Source: a bacterium
GTDB taxonomy: Bacteria; Electryoneota; JAOADG01
NCBI GenBank assembly: GCA_963681965.1
Contig: OY820579.1
Span: forward strand, 448,001 to 512,000
DNA: 64,000 nt
Reading direction: 5' to 3'
Below the pieces are notes generated by a model. The model saw nothing but the letters and a program-made list of their open reading frames with translations. It was not told where the DNA came from and ran no database searches. The translations under genes were made by a program, and so were the position numbers. Within the stretch, counting starts at the first letter, position 1. Every line of letters starts with the position of its first letter. This document shows positions 9,629 through 54,375 of this stretch, one piece after another.

Positions 9629-9757
9629 GGGATTTTCTCCTATCGGAATGGCACCGCATCTTTGCAATCCAAGTCTTCCGAATTCGATTTCGGCGGGATA
9701 ATGCAATATGCACCGTAGAGATCCGCTAGTCAAGCTTTGATGAGGAATTCAAGGGAG

Positions 9758-22992: not shown

Positions 22993-23017
22993 GGCAAATT
23001 TCCCTGAATAGAAAGTA

Positions 23018-26333: not shown

Positions 26334-26634
26334 CGTTCATCCTTTGTTTTCATAAAGTACACAACTTTTGAGGTAGAAATCTTGACTTTTTTTGCGCTCA
26401 CCGATAGTGCAGTAAATCCTTTCGAAATCATTTCATCATTCGGTTTTTCAAATACTTCTCTGAAGTTATCGGATCTAGCAGTTCGGTCGCAAATCATTGC
26501 TAACGTTTCAATTTTACTGCATATTATTTTCAACGAACATATCTTCTGATAGTTACAAAGCCATTTTTAAATCGGATGTCAATCGTTACCCAATTCGGAT
26601 CGGTGGTAAGATCTGTTTCTTACCGGGAGGCACA

Positions 26635-36809: not shown

Positions 36810-39100
36810 TCAAATTGATTCTTGCCGATCAAGTATTTCTCGAACTTTTGAGGTTAATTCCTTCATTGAAAACGGTTTCTGAATTAAATCAATTCCGGAA
36901 TCCAAGATTCCATGATTGGCAATCACATCAGCTGTATACCCCGACATGTACAATAATTTGAGATTTGGGTGATTGAGCAGTAAGCTATTCGCTAAATCCA
37001 GACCGTTCATTTCCGGCATCACGACATCAGTTACCAGTAAATGAATTTCGCGTCCACAATCTTTGGCTATTTTCAACGCTTCGATCGGATTGTCAGCCGT
37101 AAGAACGGTATAACCGTTTTTGGCGAGCATTGCTGCGGCTAACCGAATAATTGCCGGTTCATCCTCGACCAACAATATCGTTTCTTTTCCTTGCTTTATC
37201 TGCTCCGAAATTGGTTCACTTCCAGTTAAAACGGTATTATTGATATACCGTGGAAAATAAACCTTGATGGTCGTTCCAGTACTCAGTTCACTAACAAAAT
37301 TGATAAATCCCTTATTCTGTTTTACTGCTCCATAGACTGTTGCCAGTCCAAGCCCTGTTCCTTTTCCCATCTCCTTTGTCGTAAAATGGTTCGAATATAT
37401 GCGCTTGATGTTTTTTATCAATTCCCGTTCCATTGTCGGTAACAGATAACATCACAAATTCTCCGGGTAAATAATCGGCATGATCGCTACAAAATGCCTC
37501 ATCGAAAACGCAATTTGTCGTTTCGATTGTCACTGCGCCGACATCAATTATGGCATCGCGTGAATTCACACACAGATTGGTTAAAATTTGATCAATTTGC
37601 GATGGATCCACTCGAACTTGCCATAAACTTGCTCCGGGTTTCCAGAGTAAGGCAATATCCTCGCCGATGAGACGGCTCAACATTTTCAAAGTACTTTCTA
37701 CTGTCTCATTCAGATCTAGAATTTTGGGTAAAATGATTTGTTTTCGAGCGAATGCTAGCAATTGTCGGGTTAAATCCGCCGACCGATTAGCCGATTTCCG
37801 AATCTCCACCAAATCGTTATTCAGCGGAAGATTGGGATCGACTTGACTCATTGCCAATTCGGAGTGACCGAGAATTACTCCAAGCATATTATTGAAATCG
37901 TGCGCAACTCCACCCGCCAATCTTCCCACCGATTCCAATTTCATCGCTTGTTGAAGCTGTAATTCGAGGCGATCTCGTTCCTGTTCAGCACGCTTCTGTT
38001 CGGATATATCGAAAAATGACACCAGCATACAACGCTTCGATCCGATATCGAGCAATTCACCCGAAGCAAGGATGGTAATTAATTCGCCGGACTTATTTTT
38101 TATCGTCATTTCAATATTGTGCACCGAACCGTTCGTTAGCAGTTCATTGACAAAATTGTGACGATCTTCCGCTGAACACCAAATTCCCAGTTCCAGGGTT
38201 GTACGCCCAATTGCTTCTTCCCGGCTAAACCCCATTGTAGAGCGATAACTATCGTTGATTTCGATTAATCGACCGGTTTCCAGATCGGTGATCGAGAATA
38301 CTTGTGGGCTGGAACGAAATGCTTTCGCGAACTTATCTTCGGATGCACGCAATTCTTCTTCGGCATGTTTGCGCTCGGTAATATCGATGATAATGGGCAG
38401 AAAAAGCTGTGGTTTTCCTCGATCGTCAGATAACAAGATTAGGTTCAATTCACCCCAAACGATTTTCCCATCTTTCCGGATATACCGTTTTACAACATTA
38501 ACCTGATTTACTTCTCCGGCTACCAGTTTTTTTATTTCGTCAATACCGATATCGCGATCTTCCGGATGGGTGAATTCCAAGAAAGATTTTCCAATTATCT
38601 CTTCTTCGGGATAGCCCCAAAAGTCGCAAAACACTTTATTACATCGAACAAATCGAAAGTCCAGACTCACCATTCCAGCACATACCGGTGATAAATCGAA
38701 GGTTCTGCGAAACAACTCTTCGCTGTGATACAAGGCATCTTCTGCTCGTTTTCGTTCGGTAATATCGCGGATAAAGCTAACTAATCGACCATCGTCGATT
38801 TGCTGGTACAATACGCTAACTTCCACACGAAGATCTGACCATTTTTTCGTCGATGTTTTGTTTCAAATCGATCACGACCGATAGTTAAAATATTTTGGAT
38901 TGGATTTTCGGTCCAATTTGTACTCGGGCGATCGGGATATTCTGATTGATAAGTCGATCAAAGCGGATTTCATGAAGATTAATGAGATTTCGTGATTGCA
39001 TGACCTTTATAAAATGTGCATTAGCTGGACTGACGGTCACCCAAAGAAGAGTGACAATTGCGATCGTATGAAGCCGATTTAGCAATAATTTACCGAGCAT
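36810..39100 (-). pseudogene. Disrupted PAS-PAS-HisKA-HATPase-REC hybrid histidine kinase
   Basis: AGGVAHDFNN H-box in 37312-38826; the frame changes at 37383-37386 into FTTKEMGKGTGLGL and REC; a second frameshift at ~38827 (RFETKHRRKNG in another frame); signal-peptide remnant at 38885-39100. Confidence 0.75.
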
Positions 39101-39535: not shown

Positions 39536-40114
39536 TTGTTAGCAGAGCTGCGAACCGGCTCTGAAACAGCTTTTCGGAAATTGGTCGACGATAATGTCCA
39601 CCAAGTCACGAATTTGTGCTATCGTTTTGTTCAAAACCGTAAAGATGCTGAAGATTTAGCGCAAGACACCTTCACTGAAGTCTATTTCGCGTTATCCAAA
39701 TTTCGAGGTGATTCGGCTCTATCAACTTGGATTCACCAAATCGCCGTGCGAAAATCGCTCGATCATCTTCGCAGTCAAAGCCGTCAAAAGCGCAAAGGGT
39801 ATCTCACTCGGCTTTTTACTGGTGACCGCGATGATCACGACGATCCGGGCATCGATCTTCCATCCACCTCCAATCCTGAGGAAGAGGTTGAACTTGCCGA
39901 ATGTCGTTTCGTACTTCAGTCTGCTCTCGAAAAATTACCTAAAAATCAGCATATTGCCTTTGTTTTAAGTAAAATGGATGGCTTATCTTATGAGGAGATT
40001 GCGCAGATTCTTGAAACCACGGTATCGTCGGTTACTTCGCTCATTCATCGCGCAAAGAAAAGCTTGTACTCAGATTTAAAGCATTATTACTTAACATCCG
40101 ATAAAGGGTTATAG
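39536..40114 (+). CDS. ECF RNA polymerase sigma factor
   Basis: DAEDLAQDTF, STWIHQIA (region 2); LSYEEIA...VTSLIHRA (region 4); start uncertain. Confidence 0.9.
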   Translation: MLAELRTGSETAFRKLVDDNVHQVTNLCYRFVQNRKDAEDLAQDTFTEVYFALSKFRGDSALSTWIHQIAVRKSLDHLRSQSRQKRKGYLTRLFTGDRDDHDDPGIDLPSTSNPEEEVELAECRFVLQSALEKLPKNQHIAFVLSKMDGLSYEEIAQILETTVSSVTSLIHRAKKSLYSDLKHYYLTSDKGL

Positions 40115-40122
40115 GGTAATTT

Positions 40123-40150
40123 GCAAGGTCTCATGGAATTAATCGTCTAA
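40123..40150 (+). promoter_or_regulatory. ECF-type promoter, copy 1
   Basis: GCAAGGT-N13-TCGTCTAA, repeated with identical spacing at 41183-41210. Confidence 0.6.
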
Positions 40151-40167
40151 TAATGTGAATACAGGAA

Positions 40168-40527
40168 GTGGCTGAAATGCAATCGACTGATCGCGACAAT
40201 ATCGCTCATCGTAAAGTGGAAAAAACATTGTCTTCACTTGATCGGATCCCCGATCTAGCAGTCAATCCTTTTTTCTACACCCGATTGCGTCAAGCAATTT
40301 CCGAGCAGGAATCGGAACGTGCCGGATGGCTATATCGCGTTACCAACGGCTATCGAATGCTACCGGTTGCAATCGGTCTCATCTTGATTCTAAATGTGGT
40401 CACACTGACTGTATTCCTCCAATTTCAACAAACTTCTCGCGAAAATCAGACGAATATCGTCGATGACGTTGTTCGGGAATATTCACTGACATCATGGAAT
40501 TTTTCCGATAATCGCGATGGGGGTTGA
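40168..40527 (+). CDS. Putative single-TM anti-sigma factor
   Basis: Directly after the ECF gene; NPFFYTRL motif plus one TM helix. Confidence 0.65.
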   Translation: MAEMQSTDRDNIAHRKVEKTLSSLDRIPDLAVNPFFYTRLRQAISEQESERAGWLYRVTNGYRMLPVAIGLILILNVVTLTVFLQFQQTSRENQTNIVDDVVREYSLTSWNFSDNRDGG

Positions 40528-40531
40528 ATGA

Positions 40532-41083
40532 ATGGATCGAAATCGAATGAATAAATTATTGGTAGGATCTATCCTTGCGTTAGTGCTAGTCAATATCGCT
40601 TCACTTGGTGGATTGTGGTACGTACTGAGCCAACGACAACAATATCCGCCTCCGCCGATGCATAACGAGGGTCAGTTCGAAGATCGGTTCGGCATGGAAC
40701 TCGGATTATCCGAACCGCAATTGCAACAATTCCGCGAGCTGGAAAACAAGCATCACCGCAACACCGACAGTATCAACGTCGAGTTGTATCAAGTGCGATC
40801 GAAGATATTAGCTGAATTGAAACAAGCTGTTCCAGACACGAACAAGTTGACTGCATATACCGAGCAGATCGGTATCCTTCAAATTAAATTCGAGCGTAAG
40901 GTACTCTCTCATTTTCTACAAGTGAAAGCGATGCTCAAACCGGAGCAGTTTGACCGATTCTGCTCGATTTTAAATCAAATGGTTCTTTCGATGCATAACG
41001 GTATGCCGCCGAATAGTAGGATGCCGAATTTCCCGCAGCATGGTCAATCGCCAGGCGCTCCACCACCCGACCCAACACGATGA
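40532..41083 (+). CDS. Periplasmic Spy/CpxP-like (heavy-metal sensor) protein
   Basis: N-terminal TM, ELGLSEPQ and MLKPEQ (LTxxQ-like) motifs. Confidence 0.75.
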   Translation: MDRNRMNKLLVGSILALVLVNIASLGGLWYVLSQRQQYPPPPMHNEGQFEDRFGMELGLSEPQLQQFRELENKHHRNTDSINVELYQVRSKILAELKQAVPDTNKLTAYTEQIGILQIKFERKVLSHFLQVKAMLKPEQFDRFCSILNQMVLSMHNGMPPNSRMPNFPQHGQSPGAPPPDPTR

Positions 41084-42430: not shown

Positions 42431-43228
42431 ATGTTAACCGGAAGACGGTCTGCAATTGGTATTGCGTTCCTTGTCGGGATTCTGCAGATAGCGCTGATGG
42501 GTTGCTCGAAATCGATCAAATATTATTCCGCATATAACCCGAACGACTACAAAATTGCGGCAGTTATTATACCGAGTGGACCCCAGCGTGAACTATTGGA
42601 TCGCTTATTCGATCAGATCGAAGAAGCACCATTTAAAGTCGTCTGGTTTCAGGAAAAAAGTCTTCGCAATTTACCGGGGATTGCTGCGATTTTGGATTCA
42701 ACGCACCGCATTACTCCTGAACTCGCAGCTCAAATTGCCAAATCGTGCAATGCGACTCTCGTGATCTATCAAGAACCGCAATTACCTATATCCAAATCTC
42801 ATCGACCACAACGTACCCAGCGCTCCGAAAGCGGTTCAACCCCTAATAATTTTGATTCGGATGCACCACCACCTGACGATTCGGAAACGGATCAACCGCC
42901 TGACGGTAAAGGCGAGAAACCGCAAGGCATGGGTGGTGGTCATCCGGGGGATTTCAGTGGCGGACAGCCGGGTGGAATGGGTGGACCCGGCGGAATGGGT
43001 CCTGGTGGTCAAGGCGGTAGTCGAGATGGAAAACGCGGCATGCCGGGGAGAGGTCCCGGTGGCATGGATCGGAAGAACCACCCCCGATCGGATGATCGAC
43101 CAATTCGCTTCAACGTAATCGATGTAACAAATGGATCGATGATCTGGCAACAAACAATCGAAGATGCGTCATCGAATTCCGAAATCAAGAAATTTGCCAA
43201 GCACCTTGTAACCGCTGGTAAACCTTGA
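42431..43228 (+). CDS. Lipoprotein with a Gly/Met/Pro-rich low-complexity insert
   Basis: Lipobox LMGC; GGMGGPGGMGPGG region. Confidence 0.7.
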   Translation: MLTGRRSAIGIAFLVGILQIALMGCSKSIKYYSAYNPNDYKIAAVIIPSGPQRELLDRLFDQIEEAPFKVVWFQEKSLRNLPGIAAILDSTHRITPELAAQIAKSCNATLVIYQEPQLPISKSHRPQRTQRSESGSTPNNFDSDAPPPDDSETDQPPDGKGEKPQGMGGGHPGDFSGGQPGGMGGPGGMGPGGQGGSRDGKRGMPGRGPGGMDRKNHPRSDDRPIRFNVIDVTNGSMIWQQTIEDASSNSEIKKFAKHLVTAGKP

Positions 43229-43431
43229 TTTATTAGATCGATGTATCATTACTGTGATACCAGTTCAACTTCGAATTATTGGAGCAATTAAACTCATCGA
43301 GTGATCTTCACTTTCTTAAACAATTCGATGCGATTTTTGTCAAAAGAACAAGTGCAGGCAGCACACAATTACGTCCATTAGGTATTTATTCAATTTCGAT
43401 TGATTGAGCATTAACGTAACCGGGCAACGGA

Positions 43432-44421
43432 ATGCGATTCACGATTTACGCACTTCTTCTAATATTGGGTCTACTTATTCATGCCAGTTCAGGGCAAAGT
43501 TTGCAGACTGTAAGCGGCGACCTACGAGTCTATTTTCTCGATGTCGGAAAAGCCGATGCGATTTACATTGTATGCCCAACCGGTGAGCATTCCATGCTGA
43601 TCGATGCCGCCGACTCCAGTCTACCGGAAAGTGCCGAGAAATTTCGATCCGAATTACAGAAACTAACCGGTGGGTTGAATCAAAAAATCGATGTCGTCGT
43701 TGCTTCGCATGGCGATAAAGATCATATCGGCAATATGAAATGGGTGCTGGATAATTATCGGGTTGAGCGGTATCTGGACAATGGCAGCAATACCGGTACC
43801 GGGTTATATCGAGAATTGCAAATTCGGATTGCTGACCTAAAACAGATCAACCCCGGTTTTCGTTACCATTCACTTGCTACAGTCGAACCTATCTTCGCCG
43901 ATTTTTGTCCTGCTGAAAATGTGTCGGTAGAAATTTTGAATCGCGCCCCGATCAGCGAATTTTCCGATGAGAACAATCGATCGATCATCTTACGGTTGGA
44001 TTACAATACAACCTCTTTCCTCTTTCCCGGTGATGCCGATAAAGAATTGGAAACGTCGCTTCTCATCGGTCATGCAAAGCTAACAGCCAACGTTTTGAAA
44101 GCTGCTCATCACGGCGGTAATTCTGCATCCTCGAAACTTTTTCTTGAGGTAATTCGTCCCGATTATATCGTGGTAACGAGTGGAAAACCCAATTTCGATG
44201 TCTCCCAAAAACATTTATTACCCCAGCGAAAAGCCATCGATAGAATGAACGAAATTGTACCGGGATCACAATTCCGTAAGGATTTAATACCGGCATACGA
44301 CAAAAAAACAAATCAATGGCAACAGATACCAGTGAAACAAAATATTCTATTTCCATATCTCGATGGAACGATCGAAATCAGATCCGATGGCACAAGATTG
44401 ACTCTTCACGACTCGAAGTAA
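43432..44421 (+). CDS. Secreted ComEC/Rec2-type metallo-beta-lactamase-fold hydrolase
   Basis: FLDVGKADA, SHGDKDHIG, NNRS, FPGDA, AHHG. Confidence 0.85.
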   Translation: MRFTIYALLLILGLLIHASSGQSLQTVSGDLRVYFLDVGKADAIYIVCPTGEHSMLIDAADSSLPESAEKFRSELQKLTGGLNQKIDVVVASHGDKDHIGNMKWVLDNYRVERYLDNGSNTGTGLYRELQIRIADLKQINPGFRYHSLATVEPIFADFCPAENVSVEILNRAPISEFSDENNRSIILRLDYNTTSFLFPGDADKELETSLLIGHAKLTANVLKAAHHGGNSASSKLFLEVIRPDYIVVTSGKPNFDVSQKHLLPQRKAIDRMNEIVPGSQFRKDLIPAYDKKTNQWQQIPVKQNILFPYLDGTIEIRSDGTRLTLHDSK

Positions 44422-44666
44422 CACCGATTCTCGACTAAATCGTCGAATCCTAAATCGACTATTTCGTCGAGAACCGCAACAAATCATTATATGCGATTTT
44501 TAAGATTTTATTAATACAGATTTATAAATGTGGCACAACTTCTGCTAATGATAGAATCAGGGTTACGCTTTTCAATTGAATATTCCAATGGTAGCATTCG
44601 CAATCTCGCATGCAATGCACTTCGGTAATCTCAGTAATGATCCATCATCAGACAAGGAAGTACATC

Positions 44667-46226
44667 ATGCTACCCAGAACTAAAATAAATTACTCGCATA
44701 TTTCCTGTTTCATCCTATTGCTTTTAGCAATCGCACAATTTGCAATTGCAGTACCCTATCCCGGCTATACGCTGTATTGTCCAAACAACGGTCGGTACAC
44801 TTATCTGAAGAACTTGAGCAACACGACGGTTCACAGTTGGACGCATTCTCGCAGCGGTGGCTACTCCTGCTACTTGCTCGAAAATGGCGACTTGATTCGA
44901 TCAGCCGTTTCTTCGAGCAGTTCGATGAATGGTGGCGGTGCCGAAGGGATCGTGCAGAAGTACAATTGGAGTGGAACGCTAATTTGGGAATACACTTATA
45001 GTACGACTACCTACCGGTCTCATCATGACATTTGTCCGATGCCGAACGGCAACGTGATTTTAATTGCATGGGAATCGAAAACTGCAGCACAGGCTGTCGC
45101 TGCGGGTTTAAGTAGAAGCTCGGCAATTTGGCCGGATCATTTGGTCGAAGTACAACCGAGTGGTTCCACCGGCGGTACGATCGTATGGCAGTGGCACGCA
45201 TGGGATCATTTAATTCAAGCGTACGATGCATCGAAAGCAAATTACGGCGTTATTGCCGATCATCCGGAATTGCTTAATCTTAATTGCGGCAGCAGCGGTG
45301 TCGGACCGGGTGGCGGTGATTGGATGCATGTCAATTCGGTTAGCTACAATCCCACATTGGATCAAATAACGTTCTCATCGCACAATTTGAATGAACTGTA
45401 TGTAATCGACCACAGTACAACTACCGCCGAAGCGGCAACCCATACTGGTGGTCGGTGGGGGCGCGGCGGCGATTTCTTGTATCGGTGGGGTAATCCGGCA
45501 AACTACGGCACAACCGGAACACAAGTTTTCGATGTCGTGCATTGTGCGTGGTGGGTTCCGGCTGGTTTACCGGGTGCCGGACATATTCTTGCATTCAACA
45601 ATCGCTCTTCATCATCAACGTCGATGATCGTCGAAATCGTACCGCCAATGGATACGCTTGGAAATTATACTCGCACGACACGCACTGCGTTTGGTCCAGC
45701 ATCTCCGGTGTGGAGCTACACCGCGACCGGGTTCTATTCGCAGCATCTCGGCGGCAATCAACGACTACCGAACGGCAATACGATGATCGCCGAAGCGACG
45801 AGTGGCAATCTCTTCGAAGTCGATTCCGCAGGTCGAACCGTTTGGAGTTACACACCCGGCGGTGAAATCGTACGTGTTTTACGATACGGTACCGAATATC
45901 CCGGCGTAGCAATTCTTGGCACTGAGGAGGAAGTTGCCGCACTTCCCAACTCCGTTCATTTACTTTCGAACTATCCCAATCCATTCAATTCATCTACCAA
46001 GATTAATATTAAAATCGATAAACTTGCTTCGGTAAAACTGTCGATCTATAACGCCAATGGCGAATTAATCAGCAAACTGGTCGATGGAAGACTCATTGCA
46101 GGCGATCACAATTTCGATTGGAATGGGAAAAACATGAATGGAATGTCGGTAAATTCCGGAGTTTATTTCTGCAGGCTTCAGTCCGGATCAACTGTGCAAA
46201 CTAGAAAATTGGTGCTAGTTAAATAA
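44667..46226 (+). CDS. Arylsulfotransferase (ASST) family protein with T9SS-type C-terminal domain
   Basis: SHHD, DWMHVNSV, GDFLYRWGNPANY, QRLPNGNT; YPNPFN tail. Confidence 0.8.
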   Translation: MLPRTKINYSHISCFILLLLAIAQFAIAVPYPGYTLYCPNNGRYTYLKNLSNTTVHSWTHSRSGGYSCYLLENGDLIRSAVSSSSSMNGGGAEGIVQKYNWSGTLIWEYTYSTTTYRSHHDICPMPNGNVILIAWESKTAAQAVAAGLSRSSAIWPDHLVEVQPSGSTGGTIVWQWHAWDHLIQAYDASKANYGVIADHPELLNLNCGSSGVGPGGGDWMHVNSVSYNPTLDQITFSSHNLNELYVIDHSTTTAEAATHTGGRWGRGGDFLYRWGNPANYGTTGTQVFDVVHCAWWVPAGLPGAGHILAFNNRSSSSTSMIVEIVPPMDTLGNYTRTTRTAFGPASPVWSYTATGFYSQHLGGNQRLPNGNTMIAEATSGNLFEVDSAGRTVWSYTPGGEIVRVLRYGTEYPGVAILGTEEEVAALPNSVHLLSNYPNPFNSSTKINIKIDKLASVKLSIYNANGELISKLVDGRLIAGDHNFDWNGKNMNGMSVNSGVYFCRLQSGSTVQTRKLVLVK

Positions 46227-46302
46227 CACGTCAACCTTCTTTAAGAGTATCGCTGTCACCGGATCATCGCTCGCATGATACGATGACTAGGAAAGGACAA
46301 CA

Positions 46303-47247
46303 ATGATTAGCCGTCGACTTTATTCAACACTCGCTTTGGCGGTAATACTTGCACTGCTTAATTCGTGTAGTAAAGACAGTTCAACTAGTCCGACCACAAC
46401 CAACACCGATCCAGCCGGGATGGCGAAGATTGCGGCAAACAACCATAGTTTCTCAATGGGATCGACGACTGGTTTAACTGACGAACTACCGGTTCACACG
46501 GTGAGTTTCACCCACGATTTTTGGATGGACCGCACCGAAGTAACCCAATCGGATTACAATAGTCTGATGCAACAATATTATTCCGGCTATCTCGCACCGA
46601 CGTGGTCGGCGACTTATGGCTTAGGCAATCAATATCCCGTGTATTCGATTTATTGGGGCGATGCCGCGCTATACTGCAACGCCCGAAGTCGCCGCGATGG
46701 ACTCGATACGGTTTACAGCTATTCAGCCATTTCCGGAACTCCGGGTCGTCTTTGTCAATTGGTTAATGTTGTAATCGATTACACGAAAAACGGCTATCGG
46801 TTGCCAACCGAAGCGGAGTGGGAATTTGCTGCTCGTGGCGGTTCGACAAACGACTACTATTGGGGAAAAAATTACAATCCCTATCCCAACAGCAATAGCG
46901 ATTCAACTGAATTCAATCGCTATGCCGTCTGGACCGCCAATTCGTTGTCGCTGGGAATCGATACCAGCGCTTATGGAACTCACATTGTTGGATCCAAGCT
47001 CGCCAATTCATACGGTTTGTATGACATGATTGGTAATCTGTACGAGTACTGCAACGATTGGTTCGGTGACTATTCCAGCACAGCCAGCTCCAATCCGACC
47101 GGTCCAACGAGTGGTACAACTCGGTGTATCCGGGGTGGTAGTTGGGGTAACAATGCCGATTACTTACGCGTTTCGACCCGTGATTTTAATCCAGCCGGTT
47201 ACGAATTCTATTTCGTCGGATTTAGAGCTGTTCGAACGATATTCTAA
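46303..47247 (+). CDS. Formylglycine-generating-enzyme (SUMF1/FGE) domain lipoprotein
   Basis: Lipobox LNSC; FSMGS, EVTQ, YRLPTEAEWEFAARGG, GLYDMIGN, RGGSW, GFR. Confidence 0.85.
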   Translation: MISRRLYSTLALAVILALLNSCSKDSSTSPTTTNTDPAGMAKIAANNHSFSMGSTTGLTDELPVHTVSFTHDFWMDRTEVTQSDYNSLMQQYYSGYLAPTWSATYGLGNQYPVYSIYWGDAALYCNARSRRDGLDTVYSYSAISGTPGRLCQLVNVVIDYTKNGYRLPTEAEWEFAARGGSTNDYYWGKNYNPYPNSNSDSTEFNRYAVWTANSLSLGIDTSAYGTHIVGSKLANSYGLYDMIGNLYEYCNDWFGDYSSTASSNPTGPTSGTTRCIRGGSWGNNADYLRVSTRDFNPAGYEFYFVGFRAVRTIF

Positions 47248-47270
47248 TCGACTTGAAAGACTGACTGACA

Positions 47271-49643
47271 ATGAAAACCGCGTCCATGGTTCTCGGTTCG
47301 GCATTCATTCTAGCCATACTACTCTTGGCTCTACCGGAGCGATGTGACGCGGTTGTCATTAACGAGATTTTAGCGGACAATACTCAGACGATCCGCGATC
47401 AAAATGGAAATTACGACGACTGTATCGAGCTGTACAATCCATCCGATCAATCCGTCCGTCTGAGTGGTTATTTTCTCTCCGACCGACTAACCAATCATAC
47501 AAAATGGCAATTCCCCGATACATCCATCGCTGCTCATAGTTACCTGATTGTGTGGGCTGATAACGAACCAACGCAAACCGGTTTACATACCAATTTCGGA
47601 ATTTCCCGATCCAGCGAATCAATTATTTTCAGCGATGCACAAGCACGAATTGTCGATTCGATTTCCATCGGTATGCAGATGATGGATGTATCATTCGGAC
47701 GATTTCCCGATGGTTCTGGCGCATTCCGGTTTATGTATCCAACGATCGGGTATACGAACCGATTCGATGGTCCCGGTATTGTCGATCCGGCAGTCGATTT
47801 CTTCGGCGACACCACCATTTACCGTATTCGCCTCAGTTTTTATACACCGAAGTGGCGCGATTCACTTCAGTATAATTTCGAAGTGTTGAACAAACAGTAT
47901 ATGCCCGCACGAATGATTATCAACGATACCCTCGTGCTCGATAGTATCGGCATACGCTACAAAGGGAATTCATCTTATACCAACTCACGAAACACCCCGA
48001 AGAAACCATTGAAGATCAGCTTCAATCATTATAAAAGCGATCAAACGCTGGCGGGAATGCACCGCTTGAATTTTCATAACGGCGTCAGCGATCCCAGCTT
48101 TTTACGGGAAAATCTTGCATACAAAATCGCAAGACGATATCTCCCGGCATCGCGAACGGCATATGCCGATGTTTATGTAAACGACACGTTGCTGGGTTTT
48201 TATTCGTTAGTCGAACAAGTGGATAAAGTCTTTTTGAGCAAATTCTTTACTCACAATGGCGGCAACCTTTTTAAAGCATCGAATGACGGTGCATCACTGC
48301 AGTACCTCGGAACCAAAAAATCACCGTACAAGAATCAGTATGTGCTGAAAACGAATGAGGATCTTGACGACTGGTCCCATTTTATCAAATTAACCGACCT
48401 GCTTGCCAATACTCCCGATTCGGTTTTCATCGACACACTATCACGATATCTCGACCTCGATTGGTGCATTCACGCACTGGCGTTCAATACTGTATTATCG
48501 AATTACGACAGCTATACCGGTTCAGGAAGAAATTTCTATTTATACGACGATCCAACTTCTGGGTTGTTCCAATTCATTCCCTGGGATATGAACGAAGCAT
48601 TTGGCGTATACACCAATAGCTGGAATACAACCACTCAAGAAATCGTCAATGCATCGAATTTGGCGATACGTCCACTCGTTCGTCGAATCATGAGTAACGA
48701 TTCATTGCGATCCAATTACCTCCGGTATATCACCGAAATGAGCACCGGCATTGCCAGCTACGATTCGATCGCGATCATGGCAGACGCCTTTCACGCCGCG
48801 ATTGCCAGCCATGTTCTAGCAGATACGAACAAACTTTATAGCTCGCAATTCTTCATCGATAATCTGAATAGTAGTGTTACTGTAGGAATAGCTCGACAGA
48901 TTCCCGGCATAAAATCGTTTATTCGCGATCGATCGGCTAATATTCGCACACAACTGGCAAGCGAGTGGGTGTATCCCGGCGATACCGATGACAATGGGGT
49001 CGTCGATGCGTACGACATCGTTCCATTGGGTCTCTACTTTGCTGCTCAAGGAACAACCCGCACCAGTGGCAACAACACTTGGTTCATTCAACGTTCTGCA
49101 CCCTGGGGTAATCGCGCTACTACCTATGCCGATGCAAATGGCGACGGAATCGTCGATGAGCGCGATATCGTGGCAATCGGTATCAATTGGAACTGTCGTC
49201 ACCACATTTATTCCACTACTGCAACCATGAGTCGACTCGATCCTTCACTGGTATCATTACACCATGCCGATTTCCTGAGAATTTATCGCTCACTGTCCGG
49301 TGATAGTGAACCAATTCTGTCTATGAAAAAAGTGTTGGAAGAATTACTCGAAATTGAAGCTACGTCTATCGTTCCGATCGATTTTTCACTAGACCAGAAT
49401 TACCCGAATCCATTCAATAATTCGACGACGATTCGATTCGGATTACCCGCAAGCGGTCCGGTAAAATTATCGATTTACAATGCACTCGGCGAAAAGGTCG
49501 CAGAACCGTATGTACGCAAAAACGTCACTGCAGGTTATCATACTGCTGTGATCGATGCGCGAGAATTATCATCCGGACTCTATTTCTATCGCATCGAAAC
49601 CAATTCAGGCAGTAAACTGCGAAAAATGGTATTGGTGAAGTAG
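47271..49643 (+). CDS. cotH: CotH-family kinase with lamin-tail domain, dockerin and T9SS-type C-terminal domain
   Basis: VINEILA...IELYN (LTD); GIRYKGNSS, LRENLAY, VEQVD, NYDSY, NFYLY, IPWDMNEAFG; dockerin GDTDDNGVVDAYD / ADANGDGIVDERD; NYPNPFN. Confidence 0.88.
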   Translation: MKTASMVLGSAFILAILLLALPERCDAVVINEILADNTQTIRDQNGNYDDCIELYNPSDQSVRLSGYFLSDRLTNHTKWQFPDTSIAAHSYLIVWADNEPTQTGLHTNFGISRSSESIIFSDAQARIVDSISIGMQMMDVSFGRFPDGSGAFRFMYPTIGYTNRFDGPGIVDPAVDFFGDTTIYRIRLSFYTPKWRDSLQYNFEVLNKQYMPARMIINDTLVLDSIGIRYKGNSSYTNSRNTPKKPLKISFNHYKSDQTLAGMHRLNFHNGVSDPSFLRENLAYKIARRYLPASRTAYADVYVNDTLLGFYSLVEQVDKVFLSKFFTHNGGNLFKASNDGASLQYLGTKKSPYKNQYVLKTNEDLDDWSHFIKLTDLLANTPDSVFIDTLSRYLDLDWCIHALAFNTVLSNYDSYTGSGRNFYLYDDPTSGLFQFIPWDMNEAFGVYTNSWNTTTQEIVNASNLAIRPLVRRIMSNDSLRSNYLRYITEMSTGIASYDSIAIMADAFHAAIASHVLADTNKLYSSQFFIDNLNSSVTVGIARQIPGIKSFIRDRSANIRTQLASEWVYPGDTDDNGVVDAYDIVPLGLYFAAQGTTRTSGNNTWFIQRSAPWGNRATTYADANGDGIVDERDIVAIGINWNCRHHIYSTTATMSRLDPSLVSLHHADFLRIYRSLSGDSEPILSMKKVLEELLEIEATSIVPIDFSLDQNYPNPFNNSTTIRFGLPASGPVKLSIYNALGEKVAEPYVRKNVTAGYHTAVIDARELSSGLYFYRIETNSGSKLRKMVLVK

Positions 49644-49644
49644 C

Positions 49645-50166
49645 ATGAAGAACGCATACCGAATTTTTGTGATCATGATCATAGCGTTTGCATGCAATAC
49701 CGGATGCAAGAAGAACAGTAGTAACCCCGTGACACCGCAAGCGCCGATGCAGATGACAATCACTCCGGAGCGCATCCAAACAACGGTTGGGAGTAGTATT
49801 CAGCTTGAACTATCGCTCGCGAATGTAACGGGTTCGGTGTTCGCTGTTGCTACGCAAATTGAATACGACAATCGGGTATTGCAATTCGATTCGTCCGCTT
49901 CCGAGTCCGGTCTCTGGATCGGAAATAGTAGCATCAACTTCGCTCATGCCGATAGCGGTGTGATTCACCTTTCGATCTCCCGGCTTCGCGGCGATACACC
50001 GTGTTTGGGAAGCGGAACGATTGCACGGTTGAAATTCATCGCCATTTCCTCCGGTACGACACAAGTAACGGTACCGGTTGACCAATTGCATTTATACGAT
50101 TCCAATGGAACCGAACTCGGCAACACCGATCTTGATAGCGACAGCACTACTGTTATTGTGAATTAA
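49645..50166 (+). CDS. Cohesin-domain lipoprotein
   Basis: Lipoprotein signal (FAC/TGC); VGSSIQL, IEYDNRVLQF, GSGTIARLKF...SGT, LYDSNG cohesin pattern. Confidence 0.72.
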   Translation: MKNAYRIFVIMIIAFACNTGCKKNSSNPVTPQAPMQMTITPERIQTTVGSSIQLELSLANVTGSVFAVATQIEYDNRVLQFDSSASESGLWIGNSSINFAHADSGVIHLSISRLRGDTPCLGSGTIARLKFIAISSGTTQVTVPVDQLHLYDSNGTELGNTDLDSDSTTVIVN

Positions 50167-50214
50167 TCGTTCGAATTTCATCGTGATTTCGCAACGGCTA
50201 AAAGGACAATCAAA

Positions 50215-51300
50215 ATGAATTTCTATTCGAATTCACTTTCAAAACGTCGACTCTGGGTGGTAATCGTCATCGCTTTGTTGATGTTACAATCAGCGACGAT
50301 TCCCTATCGACACCAATTTCGGATGCCGCTGTATTTAACTCCGGTAACAATATGGAAATTGAAATTGGACGGTTCCGGACAAGTGACGGGAATCTGGCAG
50401 AAATCGTCACTACGCGAACAGGTGAGTTACTTGATGTTTCATTTCAATCGTCCCGATATCGTCGATATCCGATTAAGCGATCAAATGAAAGAGGGTAATC
50501 GAATCCACAAGGGCGATGTCGTCGGGTGGGTACAGTCGCGCGAAATGAATCGCTCATTGCCGGTAACCGAGGCGCAATTGAAGCACGCACAAGCTGAGGA
50601 ACTCGCATTAAAAGCCGGTGGCAGGACCGTCGATATTAAAGTTGCGCAAGAAAATTTAAAATCCGCTGAAATTGCGATGAATGCATACGAACCGGAATTT
50701 CAGCGATTTCGATCACTATTCGCGACGAAGCAAGTTGCCGAGGCTGAATTTCAACAGATTGAAAGTAAGTACAATTTACTCAAATCGGCGTATGAATTGG
50801 CTTTAGCCAAAGTCCATGCCCTTGAAGCCGGTAGCCGCAATGAAGATGTATTGGTTGCTCAAGCCGAAGTAGATCGGTTGAATCAACAACTCACGAAGGA
50901 AAAAAATATTCTTGGCAATGAAGAACCGATTTACTCGCCAATCGACGGCATCGTTCAGCTTGGTGGAGAACGCGATGTATTATTTGCAATTCAACGAACC
51001 GATACCCTCGACGCCACATTAATTCTCCCCGACAGCTATGCACCATTTGTAAGACTTGGGAAACCGGTGTCGGTGCAATTGTTTGCATCGCCGGAGGACA
51101 AACTCACCGCTACGATTTCCAATCTCGAATATTGTGCCGGCGATACTGCCGGGATTCGCGCACACATGTTGTTGCCCAATCCCACGGGGTCGCTTAGTTC
51201 CGGAATGGAAGGGTTTGGCGTGGTCTACAGCGATCGCATGACGCTGTTAAGGAGTCTGCGAATTCGTTCGTCGCAGTGGAATCAACTTTGGTCGCTCTGA
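50215..51300 (+). CDS. HlyD-family periplasmic adaptor (membrane fusion protein)
   Basis: N-terminal TM, EGNRIHKGD lipoyl half, long alpha-hairpin, IYSPIDGIV, LSSGMEG. Confidence 0.75.
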   Translation: MNFYSNSLSKRRLWVVIVIALLMLQSATIPYRHQFRMPLYLTPVTIWKLKLDGSGQVTGIWQKSSLREQVSYLMFHFNRPDIVDIRLSDQMKEGNRIHKGDVVGWVQSREMNRSLPVTEAQLKHAQAEELALKAGGRTVDIKVAQENLKSAEIAMNAYEPEFQRFRSLFATKQVAEAEFQQIESKYNLLKSAYELALAKVHALEAGSRNEDVLVAQAEVDRLNQQLTKEKNILGNEEPIYSPIDGIVQLGGERDVLFAIQRTDTLDATLILPDSYAPFVRLGKPVSVQLFASPEDKLTATISNLEYCAGDTAGIRAHMLLPNPTGSLSSGMEGFGVVYSDRMTLLRSLRIRSSQWNQLWSL

Positions 51301-51309
51301 GCCGGCATC

Positions 51310-52059
51310 ATGTTTCAAGATAGTTTTCTTCGAAAAGAGTTGAAGTTTTACGTCCCGTCGCAGAAGATTGGACCGCTACGCAACTATATCCTGCGATACA
51401 TGGAATACGATCCATTTTGTATCGGTCGTCCCAATATGTTATACAGCGTCAGGAGTATTTATTTCGATACGCCCCATTATCTATTTTTCTTCGAAAAAAT
51501 CGGCGGTATTGATAAACGAAAAAAATTACGGATTAGAACTTACAACGAACCGAATGAATTTGCGCCGGCATTTTTGGAGATTAAGAATAAATTCACCGAT
51601 AACATTTTCAAAGAACGCGCCAAAGTGCCGTTAATGAATATTACCGAAGTGCTTGACGGATTCGATAATGAGACTGGTGAAAATGTTTCAACGGCATCGC
51701 GAAAAGCACTCAACAAATTTATCTTTCTTGTGCATGGTCTCAATCTAATCCCGCGAGTTCTTATTAGCTATGAACGGGAAGCATTCGTCGGTCTGGATGA
51801 CCCGGATGTCCGGATAACGTTTGACATCGACGTTCGCAGTTATCCCAACCCTTCACTGGACGACTTCTTTCGCGAAGCCGATTTGATTACGATTTCCGAC
51901 CCGTATTTCATCCTCGAAATAAAATTTTTCAATCGCATGCCGATCTGGACAAGACAGCTAGTCAGCACTTTCGGTCTCCAGCAAGAATCAATTTCTAAAT
52001 ACTGCAATGGATTGGAAGCTTGGGTTCCATCCTTGCAAGGATTAGGATCGCTCTTATGA
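51310..52059 (+). CDS. VTC-domain (TTM-fold) polyphosphate polymerase-like protein
   Basis: RKELKF, YSVRSIYFDT, RKKLRIRTY, FLEIK, YEREAF, RITFD, ILEIKF, SKY. Confidence 0.88.
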   Translation: MFQDSFLRKELKFYVPSQKIGPLRNYILRYMEYDPFCIGRPNMLYSVRSIYFDTPHYLFFFEKIGGIDKRKKLRIRTYNEPNEFAPAFLEIKNKFTDNIFKERAKVPLMNITEVLDGFDNETGENVSTASRKALNKFIFLVHGLNLIPRVLISYEREAFVGLDDPDVRITFDIDVRSYPNPSLDDFFREADLITISDPYFILEIKFFNRMPIWTRQLVSTFGLQQESISKYCNGLEAWVPSLQGLGSLL

Positions 52060-52739
52060 ACCTATTGAACAACGTTCCGTTAACCGCATATCCGTTGACG
52101 ATCATTGAGATTATTCTCAATCTTGGATTGGCATTTACGCTCGGTTTGACAATTACCGGTGTTTATCGACTCACCAATCGCAATCAACCAATCAGTTCAT
52201 CGTACGTCATAACGTTAGTCCTGCTGACGATGGTTATTGCGTTGGTAATGATGATTATCGGCAATAGTATCGCGCGGGCATTCGGTTTAGTCGGTGCATT
52301 ATCGATCATTCGATTCCGAACTGCAGTGAAAGACAATCGCGATATCGCCTACGTCTTTTTCGCGATTGCCGCCGGTATGGCTGCCGGTGTCGGCAATTAT
52401 CTCTTGTCAATCTACGGAGTCGGGTTCCTGTGTCTTTTGTTGTTGCTGCTCGATTTCTTGCATTTCGGAAGATCCCGCAGCGGGTTGTATGTTTTGCGAC
52501 TGCAAATGACACAAACCGCTTCTACCAATCACGATTTGGAAACGATTTTCAATCAGTATCTTTCCGACTTCCGGCAGCTAGCGTTGAAATCGATTCGGAT
52601 GGGCCAGATGCTGGAGTACACTTATAACGCTAAACTTCGAGATGTAAAAAAACTATCGGAATTTGTTACTACCCTGAGCACACTGGAAGGTGTCGAACGG
52701 GTCAATATGCTGGCGGACGACGAGGAACCGGAGTCGTAA
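52056..52739 (+). CDS. DUF4956 membrane protein
   Basis: IGNSIARAFGLVGALSIIRFRTAVKD signature, 4-5 TM helices; ATGA overlap with the VTC gene. Confidence 0.88.
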   Translation: MNLLNNVPLTAYPLTIIEIILNLGLAFTLGLTITGVYRLTNRNQPISSSYVITLVLLTMVIALVMMIIGNSIARAFGLVGALSIIRFRTAVKDNRDIAYVFFAIAAGMAAGVGNYLLSIYGVGFLCLLLLLLDFLHFGRSRSGLYVLRLQMTQTASTNHDLETIFNQYLSDFRQLALKSIRMGQMLEYTYNAKLRDVKKLSEFVTTLSTLEGVERVNMLADDEEPES

Positions 52740-52758
52740 GAATTATTCATGTAAAAAT

Positions 52759-52793
52759 AAAACTGCGACGAGTATGATCCTCGTCGCAGTTTT
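52759..52793. terminator. Terminator ending the CotH/VTC operon
   Basis: AAAACTGCGACGAG-TATGATC-CTCGTCGCAGTTTT. Confidence 0.75.
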
Positions 52794-52797
52794 CATT

Positions 52798-52915
52798 TAT
52801 TGTGATTCTTGAAAATATGTTGTCATGATTCGGTGTCAGGCTTCGCCTGACCTGCGGGCGGACGCGGGGGTCCGCCCCTACTACCGATAACAACTCATTT
52901 TCAAGAGATACTATA
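52798..52915. mobile_element. 118-bp MITE/REP-like element, copy 2
   Basis: Same length as 5882-5999 with about five substitutions; same terminal inverted repeats. Confidence 0.75.
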
Positions 52916-52932
52916 GATCTGTCGGAACCGAA

Positions 52933-54375
52933 TTAATCGCCATTCCGGTAGGTCACCACACGGTAGTAGTACTTTCCGGTAACATTATTGTCGGTGTAAG
53001 TAAAATTACTGGGACCCACCATAGCAAGATAGGTTCCTTCCAACGGTGGTGAAAAGTAACCCGAAGTTTCGCTACGGTAAATTTTAAATCCGTCCGCATA
53101 TCCACCATAGGTCCAGCTTAACGTCGCGCTCCCATTCGCATAGGTGATTACCAGCATCGTCGGTGGATCTGGACTAATTACTACGGCAAATTCGTGCAGA
53201 TAATAAAGCGACCACTTCCCCTGATTGTCGCGTACTCGCACATATAGTTGATGATTCCCAGGTGTGGTAGATCGTAAATCGGCAACGAATCCGCTCTCGA
53301 TCGAACTCCCCGGAGTGATCACGATACCGTGTCCACTACCAATTCCGGGATCGGTATCGATAAAATATTCCGCTGCCAAAATTTGTCCGGAAGTGGAGGG
53401 TGCCGGTTCCACGAGAAACGGTTTAACAATCGGCAAACTCCACTTACCCGAGTTATCGCGACTTCGGATATATAGTGCATGAAAGCCCAGCGATAAACCG
53501 GATAAATCGGCGGTAAAATTCGCATTAATGGTACTTCCCATGGTAATCGCAATGGGACGACCATTACCTAAACCGGGATCGGAATCGATAAAATATTCCA
53601 CCGCCGAGAGCAATGGATTGACAGGTATCGGTTCAACCAGAAAGGGTTTGACGAGAGTAAGACTCCATTTACCGTTATTATCGCGCGTCCTAACCGAGAG
53701 TGCGTGATATCCAACTGGAACAGTCGACAGATCGACAGTAAAATTGGTCGAAATCTCGCTCTCTGGCGTAAATGAAATCGCGTGTCCATTCCCATATCCG
53801 GGATCGCTATCGACAAAATATTCTGCTGCAGCAACAGTACCGTTCAACCGCAACGGTTCGACTAGAAACGGTTTTACAATTACCAAACTCCAGCGACCTC
53901 GATTGTCTTTCACACGGATCGATAATGAATGATAACCGATCGCAATTCCGCTTAAATCGGCAATGAAATTAGCAGAAATCGTACTATCGGTCGATACCGA
54001 AATCACTCGACCCAGCCCGTAACCGGGATCGGAATCGATGAAATACTCGGCAGCAGCAATTCGTACGGTATTTCCCGGAATTGGTTCGACTAGAAACGGC
54101 TTCATACTTGTGAGACTCCAGCGATTGGAATCGTCTTGGACACGAACATATAATGTATGATATCCGACGGATAAGCCATTCAGATTGGCAACGAAACTTA
54201 CATTGATTGACGTATCGCTAACGATTCCAACCGAATTTCCACTACCATATCCCGGATCGGTATCGATATAATATTCGACTCGCGTAACGCGAAAGGCGTT
54301 CACTGTTGACGGTATCATTACGCATGCGAGTATCAGTACAATTAGCACACAGATTGATTTCCGGAAGCTGAACAT
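52933..54375 (-). CDS. Secreted protein with five ~75-aa EYFIDxDPGxGxG Ig-like repeats and an FN3-like tail
   Basis: Repeats EY(F/Y)IDxDPG...G(Y/F)HxLxVRxxD..xWS; tail GFKIY...YYYRVV; AGGAGG RBS. Confidence 0.75.
   Translation of the reverse strand: MFSFRKSICVLIVLILACVMIPSTVNAFRVTRVEYYIDTDPGYGSGNSVGIVSDTSINVSFVANLNGLSVGYHTLYVRVQDDSNRWSLTSMKPFLVEPIPGNTVRIAAAEYFIDSDPGYGLGRVISVSTDSTISANFIADLSGIAIGYHSLSIRVKDNRGRWSLVIVKPFLVEPLRLNGTVAAAEYFVDSDPGYGNGHAISFTPESEISTNFTVDLSTVPVGYHALSVRTRDNNGKWSLTLVKPFLVEPIPVNPLLSAVEYFIDSDPGLGNGRPIAITMGSTINANFTADLSGLSLGFHALYIRSRDNSGKWSLPIVKPFLVEPAPSTSGQILAAEYFIDTDPGIGSGHGIVITPGSSIESGFVADLRSTTPGNHQLYVRVRDNQGKWSLYYLHEFAVVISPDPPTMLVITYANGSATLSWTYGGYADGFKIYRSETSGYFSPPLEGTYLAMVGPSNFTYTDNNVTGKYYYRVVTYRNGD

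Follow-up and report, generated by a model that had tools for sequence, protein, structure and literature searches.

The question raised by a cluster of seven genes in a 64,000-nucleotide stretch of bacterial DNA (GTDB lineage Electryoneota, JAOADG01; NCBI GenBank assembly GCA_963681965.1, contig OY820579.1, positions 448,001 to 512,000 of the forward strand; the window in what follows) is why a VTC domain of the type that makes polyphosphate (polyP) in yeast, a periplasmic adaptor and a secreted kinase of the CotH family should be encoded side by side. In order, the genes are predicted to encode an arylsulfotransferase-family (ASST) protein, a lipoprotein with a formylglycine-generating enzyme (FGE) fold, a protein combining a lamin-tail domain (LTD), a CotH domain, a dockerin and a sorting domain of the type IX secretion system (T9SS), a cohesin lipoprotein, an HlyD-like adaptor, a VTC protein and a membrane protein of the DUF4956 family. 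The sequence-only reading of this locus had taken all seven genes as one operon that may export polyP to drive a surface-tethered CotH kinase. In this study, the conserved unit was found to be the adaptor–VTC–DUF4956 trio, within a cluster that is otherwise modular. From domain identities, active-site conservation, adaptor fold and gene linkage, we infer that this trio couples the synthesis of polyP to its export; this is the best-supported reading, held tentatively at slightly under even chances.

The extent of the unit was determined from related loci. A one-genome-per-species scan with a 17-sequence VTC alignment gave 530 confirmed VTC relatives, and the best 80 loci were analysed by searching their open reading frames (ORFs) with the window proteins and with iterated hidden Markov models (HMMs). 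All 80 come from metagenome-assembled genomes (MAGs) of diderms of the Fibrobacterota–Chlorobiota–Bacteroidota (FCB) type, including Calditrichota, LCP-89, KSB1, Latescibacterota, Eisenbacteria, Ignavibacteria and Bacteroidota. DUF4956 was present at 78 of them, in every case adjacent to VTC on its 3′ side, and an HlyD-like protein at 68. The trio always runs in the order adaptor–VTC–DUF4956 on a single strand, and the stop and start codons of neighbouring genes often overlap. Where more than 1200 bp were available upstream of VTC, the adaptor directly preceded it in 62 of 70 loci by script and in 63 on inspection, the adaptor of L034 having been missed because the VTC ORF of that locus was over-extended; a partial adaptor stood at the contig edge in five further loci. 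The remaining families of the window cluster are much less regular: a T9SS C-terminal domain was found at 41 of the 80 loci (including many CotH and LTD genes), LTD at 32, a CotH domain at 27, FGE at five, ASST at two (L017 and L056), cohesin at one and dockerin at none. When the count was restricted to the 40 loci with flanks of 9 kb or more on each side, 37 had the adaptor and 18 had CotH. Clustering of all genes at the 80 loci gave no further widely common family, and the 223 unlabelled genes no more than two positions from the trio were, by Pfam, mostly unrelated housekeeping genes, so that the trio stands alone. The locus counts rule out the seven genes as one conserved system.

A tblastn search of a plasmid collection with the VTC protein returned six monoderm records (five Bacillota and one Actinomycetota). 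VTC and DUF4956 are adjacent in all six and a CotH gene is present in four; the adaptor was found in none (HMM search at E<=0.01; Pfam on 23 neighbouring proteins). The difference from the diderm loci (63/70 versus 0/6; Fisher p = 8e-6, from narrow samples taken from different collections) bears on the question, raised from the sequence alone, whether a neighbourhood survey would find HlyD only in diderms. The other monoderm neighbours include exopolysaccharide genes (by annotation), Cthe_2159 and a two-domain phospholipase D (PLD)-like protein, which in one Bacillota locus (L085, 6495-8051) follows DUF4956. In the available text of two preprints (bioRxiv 10.1101/768473, 10.1101/2024.04.20.589940), cotH, polyphosphate polymerase and DUF4956 genes, in part with DUF4832, adjoin Gram-positive pel operons with no function assigned, which bears out the statement that the three families are known to co-occur without a function. 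The same families are linked in these sets, in the six monoderm loci and in the window; in the window, however, VTC and DUF4956 are accompanied by a periplasmic adaptor and pel genes are absent, the CotH protein carries LTD, dockerin and T9SS sorting domains, and the order is adaptor–VTC–DUF4956 with CotH at a position that varies among relatives.

The VTC protein has 249 residues and is a bare VTC domain (PF09359, 2e-44, 152.3 bits against a cutoff of 23); because it has no signal peptide, it is expected to be cytoplasmic. A profile of 28 bacterial homologues matched Vtc4 structures (3g3q) at 6e-22 and those of Vtc2 and Vtc3 at 8e-12 or more weakly. With numbering taken from the printed alignment and from full-length chain 8i6v_E, window residues K12, R74, R76, K92 and Y154 aligned with Vtc4 K200, R264, R266, K281 and Y359, and R156, E203, S229 and K230 with R361, E426, S457 and K458. 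Most of these positions are invariant among the 28 homologues, all of which have lysine at the position of K230. In the part of a cryo-EM preprint that is available (bioRxiv 10.1101/2023.01.27.525886), mutation of K200, R264, R266, K281, Y359, R361, S457 or K458 reduces yeast polyP, E426 binds Mn, and K458 is the single position that differs in Vtc2 and Vtc3, which are inactive and have I or L there. All of the Vtc4-critical residues are kept in the window protein, which supports, at the level of the active site, the earlier claim of a polyP polymerase; the protein is a putative polyphosphate polymerase with a Vtc4-type, polymerase-competent active site, and would be expected to have polymerase activity.

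Triphosphate-tunnel enzymes include triphosphatases and cyclases, and the VTC protein could be another such enzyme (a triphosphatase, or one that forms nucleotides or oligophosphates), with the module exporting or sensing a small phosphorylated molecule. Two observations favour this view: the bacterial VTC proteins have an invariant glutamate (E10) two residues before the catalytic lysine, where Vtc4 has threonine (T198), which brings them nearer to the classical triphosphatase E-x-K motif; and the literature search found no assayed activity for any bacterial VTC-domain protein. However, the full set of polymerase-critical residues is retained, among them the lysine by which active Vtc4 differs from inactive Vtc2 and Vtc3, and the best profile match is to Vtc4 rather than to these two proteins, which makes a non-polymerase very unlikely.

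By sequence, the HlyD-like protein lies below every curated cutoff, both in Pfam (HlyD_D23, 21.2 bits against 30; HlyD_3, 20.4 against 22.2) and in NCBIfam (PRK03598, 59 against 393; RND_mfp, 51 against 95). An AlphaFold2 (AF2) model built from a 62-sequence alignment (pLDDT 90.6) has a transmembrane (TM) helix at residues 7-28, beta domains and a long alpha-hairpin with helical arms at 109-170 and 176-233, of about 60 residues each. A Foldseek search of the PDB with this model gave 72 matches at E<=1e-3, headed by EmrA (4tko, 2e-15) and including MacA, EmrAB-TolC, AcrA, MexA and ZneB (2e-15 to 1e-11). On the predicted fold, the protein is a genuine periplasmic adaptor of a divergent family, with a single N-terminal membrane anchor. 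Thus, all seven of the domain assignments made in the sequence-only reading were recovered, that of HlyD by the predicted fold only, and its assignment as a periplasm-bridging adaptor gained support from AF2 and Foldseek. At the hairpin tip, R164 is kept in 59, L168 in 53 and S175 in 45 of 62 relatives, a spacing (R-x3-L-x6-S) that presumably corresponds to the adaptor tip motif that meets TolC.

The adaptor is modelled with the fold of its counterparts in EmrAB-TolC, MacAB-TolC and HlyBD-TolC, including the N-terminal TM anchor and the long alpha-hairpin. The likeness extends to the operon of three relatives (L062, L068 and L077), where a TolC-like outer-membrane efflux protein (OEP) gene (E 1e-38 to 1e-42) stands immediately 3′ of DUF4956. 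These tripartite systems differ from the trio in that no ATP-binding cassette (ABC), major facilitator superfamily (MFS) or resistance–nodulation–division (RND) transporter gene lies beside the adaptor in the window, nor is any recurrent in the flank census of the 80 loci; in addition, the cargo here would be a polymer made at the machine itself. Adaptors need an inner-membrane partner, and DUF4956, the sole such candidate in the trio, is therefore the candidate partner, together with the cytoplasmic polymerase. The OEP genes (L062, 11438-12787; L068, 11462-12802; L077, 11459-12808) overlap DUF4956 or lie 3 to 163 bp from it; all three loci belong to Cytophagales/Bacteroidota, and each has a weakly phytase-like gene upstream of the adaptor.

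The DUF4956 protein (PF16316, 7.2e-19, 68.6 bits against a cutoff of 30.6) also has a weak Pfam match to MgtC and a weak NCBIfam match to MgtC/SapB (PRK09977, 9.8e-5) over nearly its full length. Its AF2 model (pLDDT 79) comprises five helices within residues 16-134 and a ferredoxin/ACT-like beta-alpha-beta domain at 144-220. Foldseek matches are confined to this C-terminal domain and include the C-terminal domains of MgtC (2lqj, 7qa5); the TM part of the model matched nothing. In a 71-sequence alignment, R74, R86, R88 and D96 are invariant and K92 and D93 nearly so, all between helices 3 and 4; this charged core would lie at the cytoplasmic face if the ACT domain is cytoplasmic, as we place it. 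DUF4956 is the proposed inner-membrane conduit. A complex prediction for VTC with DUF4956 (score 0.00) gave no verdict and counts neither way. In the literature text examined, DUF4956 has no assigned function, and one such gene is merely listed in an expression table in the part of the paper available (PMC10434189). The family is large and widely distributed, with 5461 representatives in a set of 1.84 billion at E<=1e-10, so that a function for DUF4956 would annotate thousands of genes.

The likeness of DUF4956 to MgtC/SapB, and of its C-terminal domain to MgtC and ACT domains, also fits a different role, in which the product, polyP or a short oligophosphate, is retained inside the cell or at the inner membrane, DUF4956 serves as an MgtC-like anchor and ACT regulator of VTC, and the adaptor and secreted enzymes are co-regulated with them for a stress or phosphate response. 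OmpR-type two-component genes flank the VTC–DUF4956 pair in three of the six monoderm loci, in L031 the trio has a Na/Pi cotransporter-PhoU gene as a neighbour, and a preprint on Streptococcus intermedius suggests, in the text available, that the polymer may stay cytoplasmic (bioRxiv 10.1101/2024.04.20.589940). An adaptor with no transporter would be unprecedented, yet the adaptor is linked to VTC in 62-63 of 70 loci, often by overlapping codons; furthermore, the TolC-like gene in three loci is hard to account for without export, and the recurrent partners are secreted proteins. Retention of the polymer is therefore considered to be unlikely.

If the polymer is exported, the trio would be a self-contained module spanning the envelope and would work as follows. 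The cytoplasmic VTC domain would polymerize phosphate from a nucleoside triphosphate, like Vtc4; DUF4956 would move the growing chain across the inner membrane through its five TM helices, with the conserved Arg/Lys-rich loop and the ACT-like domain predicted at the cytoplasmic face; and the membrane-anchored adaptor would span the periplasm to a TolC-type outer-membrane channel, presumably encoded elsewhere in the source genome and adjacent in some relatives, so that polyP would be delivered to the outside of the cell. According to the accessible parts of two studies (PMC9911596; bioRxiv 10.1101/2023.01.27.525886), the eukaryotic VTC complex makes polyP on the cytoplasmic side and, coupled to this, passes it through an associated membrane protein. 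The proposed logic of the trio is the same, and the catalytic tunnel domain is homologous, with all critical residues in common. The window protein, however, is a bare tunnel domain with neither an SPX domain nor a TM domain of its own, and no SPX or Vtc1-type family was found among the 41 window proteins scanned. The membrane partner would be the unrelated, MgtC-like DUF4956 instead of a Vtc1-type subunit, and the proposed destination is the cell exterior rather than the vacuole.

Several points weigh against coupled synthesis and export. With regard to DUF4956, the family is unrelated to Vtc1-type channel subunits, its nearest named relatives, MgtC/SapB, are viewed as regulators and not as channels, and its best 150 representatives are all stand-alone proteins of about 225 residues; no VTC–DUF4956 fusion was seen and none of 640 candidates scored as longer (fused) VTC forms, which is weak evidence. 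For the VTC protein, the glutamate at position 10 and the lack of an assayed bacterial member count here as well. Seven loci lack the adaptor despite having room for it (L008, L013, L018, L019, L056, L071 and L078), so that it is dispensable in some diderms; a CotH gene lies beside or near the VTC–DUF4956 pair in six of the seven. At the hairpin tip, the window adaptor has alanine at position 175, where 45 of the 62 relatives have serine. No outer-membrane factor gene was found among the window proteins scanned, and a TolC-like gene is adjacent in just three of the 80 relatives; outer-membrane factor genes are often unlinked to adaptor genes. Both samples are narrow, the diderm loci being closest relatives only and the monoderm loci six plasmid-collection records. 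Finally, since ASST, FGE and cohesin are so rarely linked to VTC, a role for them in the same process is weakly grounded.

Bacteria have been reported to carry or release polyP at the cell surface, and we know of no described bacterial polyP exporter. The literature search found no paper joining Vtc4 and HlyD, and, outside subscription journals, none describing an adaptor or TolC with VTC/DUF4956 genes; published reviews on bacterial extracellular polyP name no bacterial exporter in the text available. There is a fair chance that the trio is a new kind of machine. If it both makes and exports polyP, it would be a second bacterial route to polyP besides polyphosphate kinase (PPK), and a bacterial counterpart of the eukaryotic VTC complex with a different, non-homologous membrane part and a diderm-specific extension. 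It would also explain why extracellular CotH kinases travel with a cytoplasmic polymerase across phyla, and the power source of extracellular phosphorylation would become directly testable.

The four genes upstream of the trio would, on the export reading, be lineage-specific accessory cargo co-expressed with it, namely the T9SS-secreted ASST-like propeller and LTD-CotH kinase and the FGE-fold and cohesin lipoproteins, acting on, with or beside the exported polymer at the cell surface. The CotH gene product has a signal peptide and matches CotH (1e-57, 196.5 bits), LTD (3.5e-15), Dockerin_1 (3.2e-5, 24.5 bits against 22.9) and Por_Secre_tail (9e-12) in Pfam, as well as TIGR04183 (47.0 bits against a cutoff of 23), the T9SS type-A C-terminal sorting domain. 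It matches Bacillus cereus CotH (5jd9), and its D413 and D439 align with catalytic D228 and D251 of B. subtilis CotH, both of which are needed for activity according to the accessible part of the source (PMC7821199). When the CotH domains of the window and related loci were compared (39 in all), every one retained D439, 38 retained N421 and 30 retained D413. The window protein thus shares its Pfam family and both catalytic aspartates with the Bacillus spore-coat kinase; in contrast to the latter, it is a non-spore protein, predicted to be secreted by the T9SS and fused to a lamin-tail domain and a dockerin. Serine replaces D413 in seven of the 39 domains, with N421 and D439 retained, and back-to-back CotH gene pairs occur in related loci (for example, L011, L014, L020 and L021); the sequences suggest that Ser413-type proteins are pseudokinases, or paralogues with an altered chemistry, that pair with active copies.

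When all six frames of the window were scanned for D-x-[DN]-x-[DN]-G-x-[IVL]-x-x-x-D, the motif was found in the dockerin only, where it occurs twice. The cohesin lipoprotein (PF00963, 1.5e-9, 38.6 bits against a cutoff of 24.1) has a signal peptide with a Cys lipobox and presumably anchors the dockerin of the preceding gene product, so that the kinase would be docked by way of its dockerin; the one homologue at the same position among the 80 loci is in L001, the closest relative. As in cohesin–dockerin pairs outside cellulosomes, both modules pass the Pfam cutoffs, the two calcium loops are canonical and the genes are 1 bp apart. Unlike in known pairs, carbohydrate-active enzymes are absent, a diderm lipoprotein with a single cohesin takes the place of the scaffold, and the docked enzyme would be a kinase with its own T9SS anchor signal.

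The ASST protein (PF05935, 4.8e-21, 75.6 bits against a cutoff of 24.2) likewise ends in a T9SS type-A sorting domain (Por_Secre_tail, 9e-10; TIGR04183, 2.7e-11, 43.3 bits against a cutoff of 23) and has a signal peptide when read from 44667. It matched no solved structure by sequence, and is predicted to be a secreted beta-propeller of the arylsulfotransferase family. The FGE-fold protein (PF03781, 1.4e-45, 156 bits; NCBIfam matches all below cutoff) has the lipobox LLNSC. Among solved structures it is closest to Treponema denticola variable protein 1 (2y3c, 7.8e-25), and PorK/GldK also match. In alignment with true FGEs (5nxl, 6s07), Asn and a gap replace the two catalytic cysteines that follow the GGS motif; because this pair is absent, the lipoprotein is probably non-catalytic as a formylglycine-generating enzyme. 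Its description as an FGE-domain lipoprotein stands for the domain and the lipobox. A role for the gene as a sulfatase maturase was considered and rejected because of the missing cysteines. The only other locus with an ASST–FGE pair is L017 (961-5938), where a VTC gene without DUF4956 is followed by a 958-residue LTD-ASST-CTD (C-terminal domain) fusion and a close homologue of the FGE-fold lipoprotein (E 1e-119). L056 has two ASST genes and two LTD/CotH genes upstream of VTC.

What varies around the trio is a set of genes for secreted or surface proteins, of which several belong to phosphate-handling families. A small single-domain PLD-like protein is encoded beside the trio in six loci, immediately upstream of the adaptor in all except L012. 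Phytase-like/SdiA-regulated propellers follow DUF4956 in four loci, and members of the same cluster family occur in four more. Seven or eight loci encode beta-helix proteins of about 520 residues; counted together with Cthe_2159 proteins, these partners recur in at least eight. A full envelope machine, in which the tunnel polymerase, the DUF4956 conduit, the adaptor and a TolC-type channel would make and extrude polyP in one step and CotH kinases and the PLD-like, phytase-like and beta-helix partners seen in relatives would draw phosphoryl groups or energy from the polymer outside the cell, where there is no ATP, is doubtful as a whole. Its weakest step, the use of polyP by CotH as phosphoryl donor, is speculative and on present evidence unlikely. 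The PLD-like genes are at 8217-8903 in L004, 8345-8890 in L006, 8339-8899 in L007, 2724-3251 in L015 and 8279-8911 in L016; in L012 (291-830) the gene is upstream of VTC with no adaptor gene between. One PLD-like protein weakly matches the PLD-like domain of polyphosphate kinase. In one MAG (L065 and L070), there are two VTC genes, one with DUF4956 at the contig start and the other with an adaptor and no DUF4956.

Other neighbours point towards metals. In L063 and L067 the gene immediately 5′ of the adaptor encodes a heavy-metal-associated (HMA)-domain protein, and in L063 a multicopper oxidase gene lies next to it; L032 has Metal_resist and Cthe_2159 genes, the Metal_resist/LTXXQ gene (6218-6754) lying upstream of the trio; and in the window itself an extracytoplasmic function (ECF) sigma factor and a Metal_resist gene (39536-41083) lie upstream on the same strand. 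In addition, 53 of the 80 loci have no CotH. The trio could chiefly serve metal or cation handling, with exported or periplasmic polyP chelating or mineralizing metals or Ca/Mg at the cell surface, and with CotH and the other upstream genes as a separate surface-enzyme cassette that is adjacent by chance. Metal-related neighbours, however, occur in just three of the 80 loci and the window, and the CotH linkage crosses phyla (27/80 diderm loci, 4/6 monoderm loci and the published pel-linked sets). We regard this purpose as quite unlikely; it still needs export, and is therefore more a variant of the export reading than an alternative to it.

The seven genes are the only sizeable ORFs between 44610 and 52793 and all lie on the + strand (Table 1), with gaps, in order, of 76, 23, 1, 48, 9 and -4 bp. 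The close packing before one terminator, the 1-bp gap between the cotH and cohesin genes and the ATGA overlap of VTC with DUF4956 (52056-52059, read directly in the sequence), all of which the sequence-only reading had described, were reproduced, and the spacing suggests that the genes are co-transcribed. For the ASST gene, the ATG at 44667 is a likelier start than 44610 because it is preceded by AAGGAAG (44655-44661), a ribosome-binding site, and yields a clean signal peptide. A scan of 43000-54000 for sigma-70-type promoters gave 18 matches against 20.3 expected, which is chance level, so that the promoter was not located. The hairpin is the sole strong terminator-like site and is common to the array and the convergent downstream genes, the first genes beyond it being on the - strand.

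Table 1. Positions in the window of the seven genes and of the sites within and around them.
Feature	Positions	Strand	Basis
Probable promoter region (245-bp intergenic region)	44422-44666	+	sequence read
ASST + T9SS C-terminal domain gene	44667-46226 (longest ORF from 44610)	+	PF05935, Por_Secre_tail
FGE-sulfatase-domain lipoprotein gene	46303-47247	+	PF03781
LTD-CotH-dockerin-Por_Secre_tail gene	47271-49643	+	Pfam
Two dockerin calcium-binding loops, 12 residues each	48981-49016, 49131-49166	+	motif scan
Cohesin lipoprotein gene	49645-50166	+	PF00963
HlyD-like adaptor gene	50215-51300	+	sub-threshold Pfam/NCBIfam, predicted fold
VTC protein gene	51310-52059	+	PF09359
DUF4956 membrane protein gene	52056-52739	+	PF16316
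Bidirectional hairpin terminator	52759-52793	both	14-pair stem, 7 G-C pairs

Upstream of the cluster, the same strand carries genes for the ECF sigma factor, a small ORF, the Metal_resist protein, an O-methyltransferase, an unknown protein and a metallo-beta-lactamase-fold protein; of these, none recurs near VTC in the 80 loci save Metal_resist in L032. The first three, comprising the sigma factor, a 119-residue ORF and the LTXXQ-type periplasmic Metal_resist protein, lie 3.6 kb upstream of the cluster. At 36810-38826 on the - strand, two overlapping ORFs (37312-38826 and 36810-37433) each hold part of HATPase_c and the second adds a receiver domain; together they resemble a single hybrid histidine kinase gene interrupted by a frameshift or by an error in sequencing. 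A radical SAM gene adjoins a fused Memo-AMMECR1 gene at 21460-24274 (- strand), beside a gene for a 745-residue spermine-synthase-domain protein (19213-21450); a radical SAM and AMMECR1-Memo pair also lies directly upstream of the trio in L040 (1568-4244) and L041 (5831-8524). The window also encodes a T9SS-sorted protein of 2497 residues (26497-33990, + strand), in which beta-helix, NosD and CarboxypepD_reg domains are recognized, and contains several further T9SS cargo genes, such as those for an S8 peptidase (6089-9733) and at 16549-18561.

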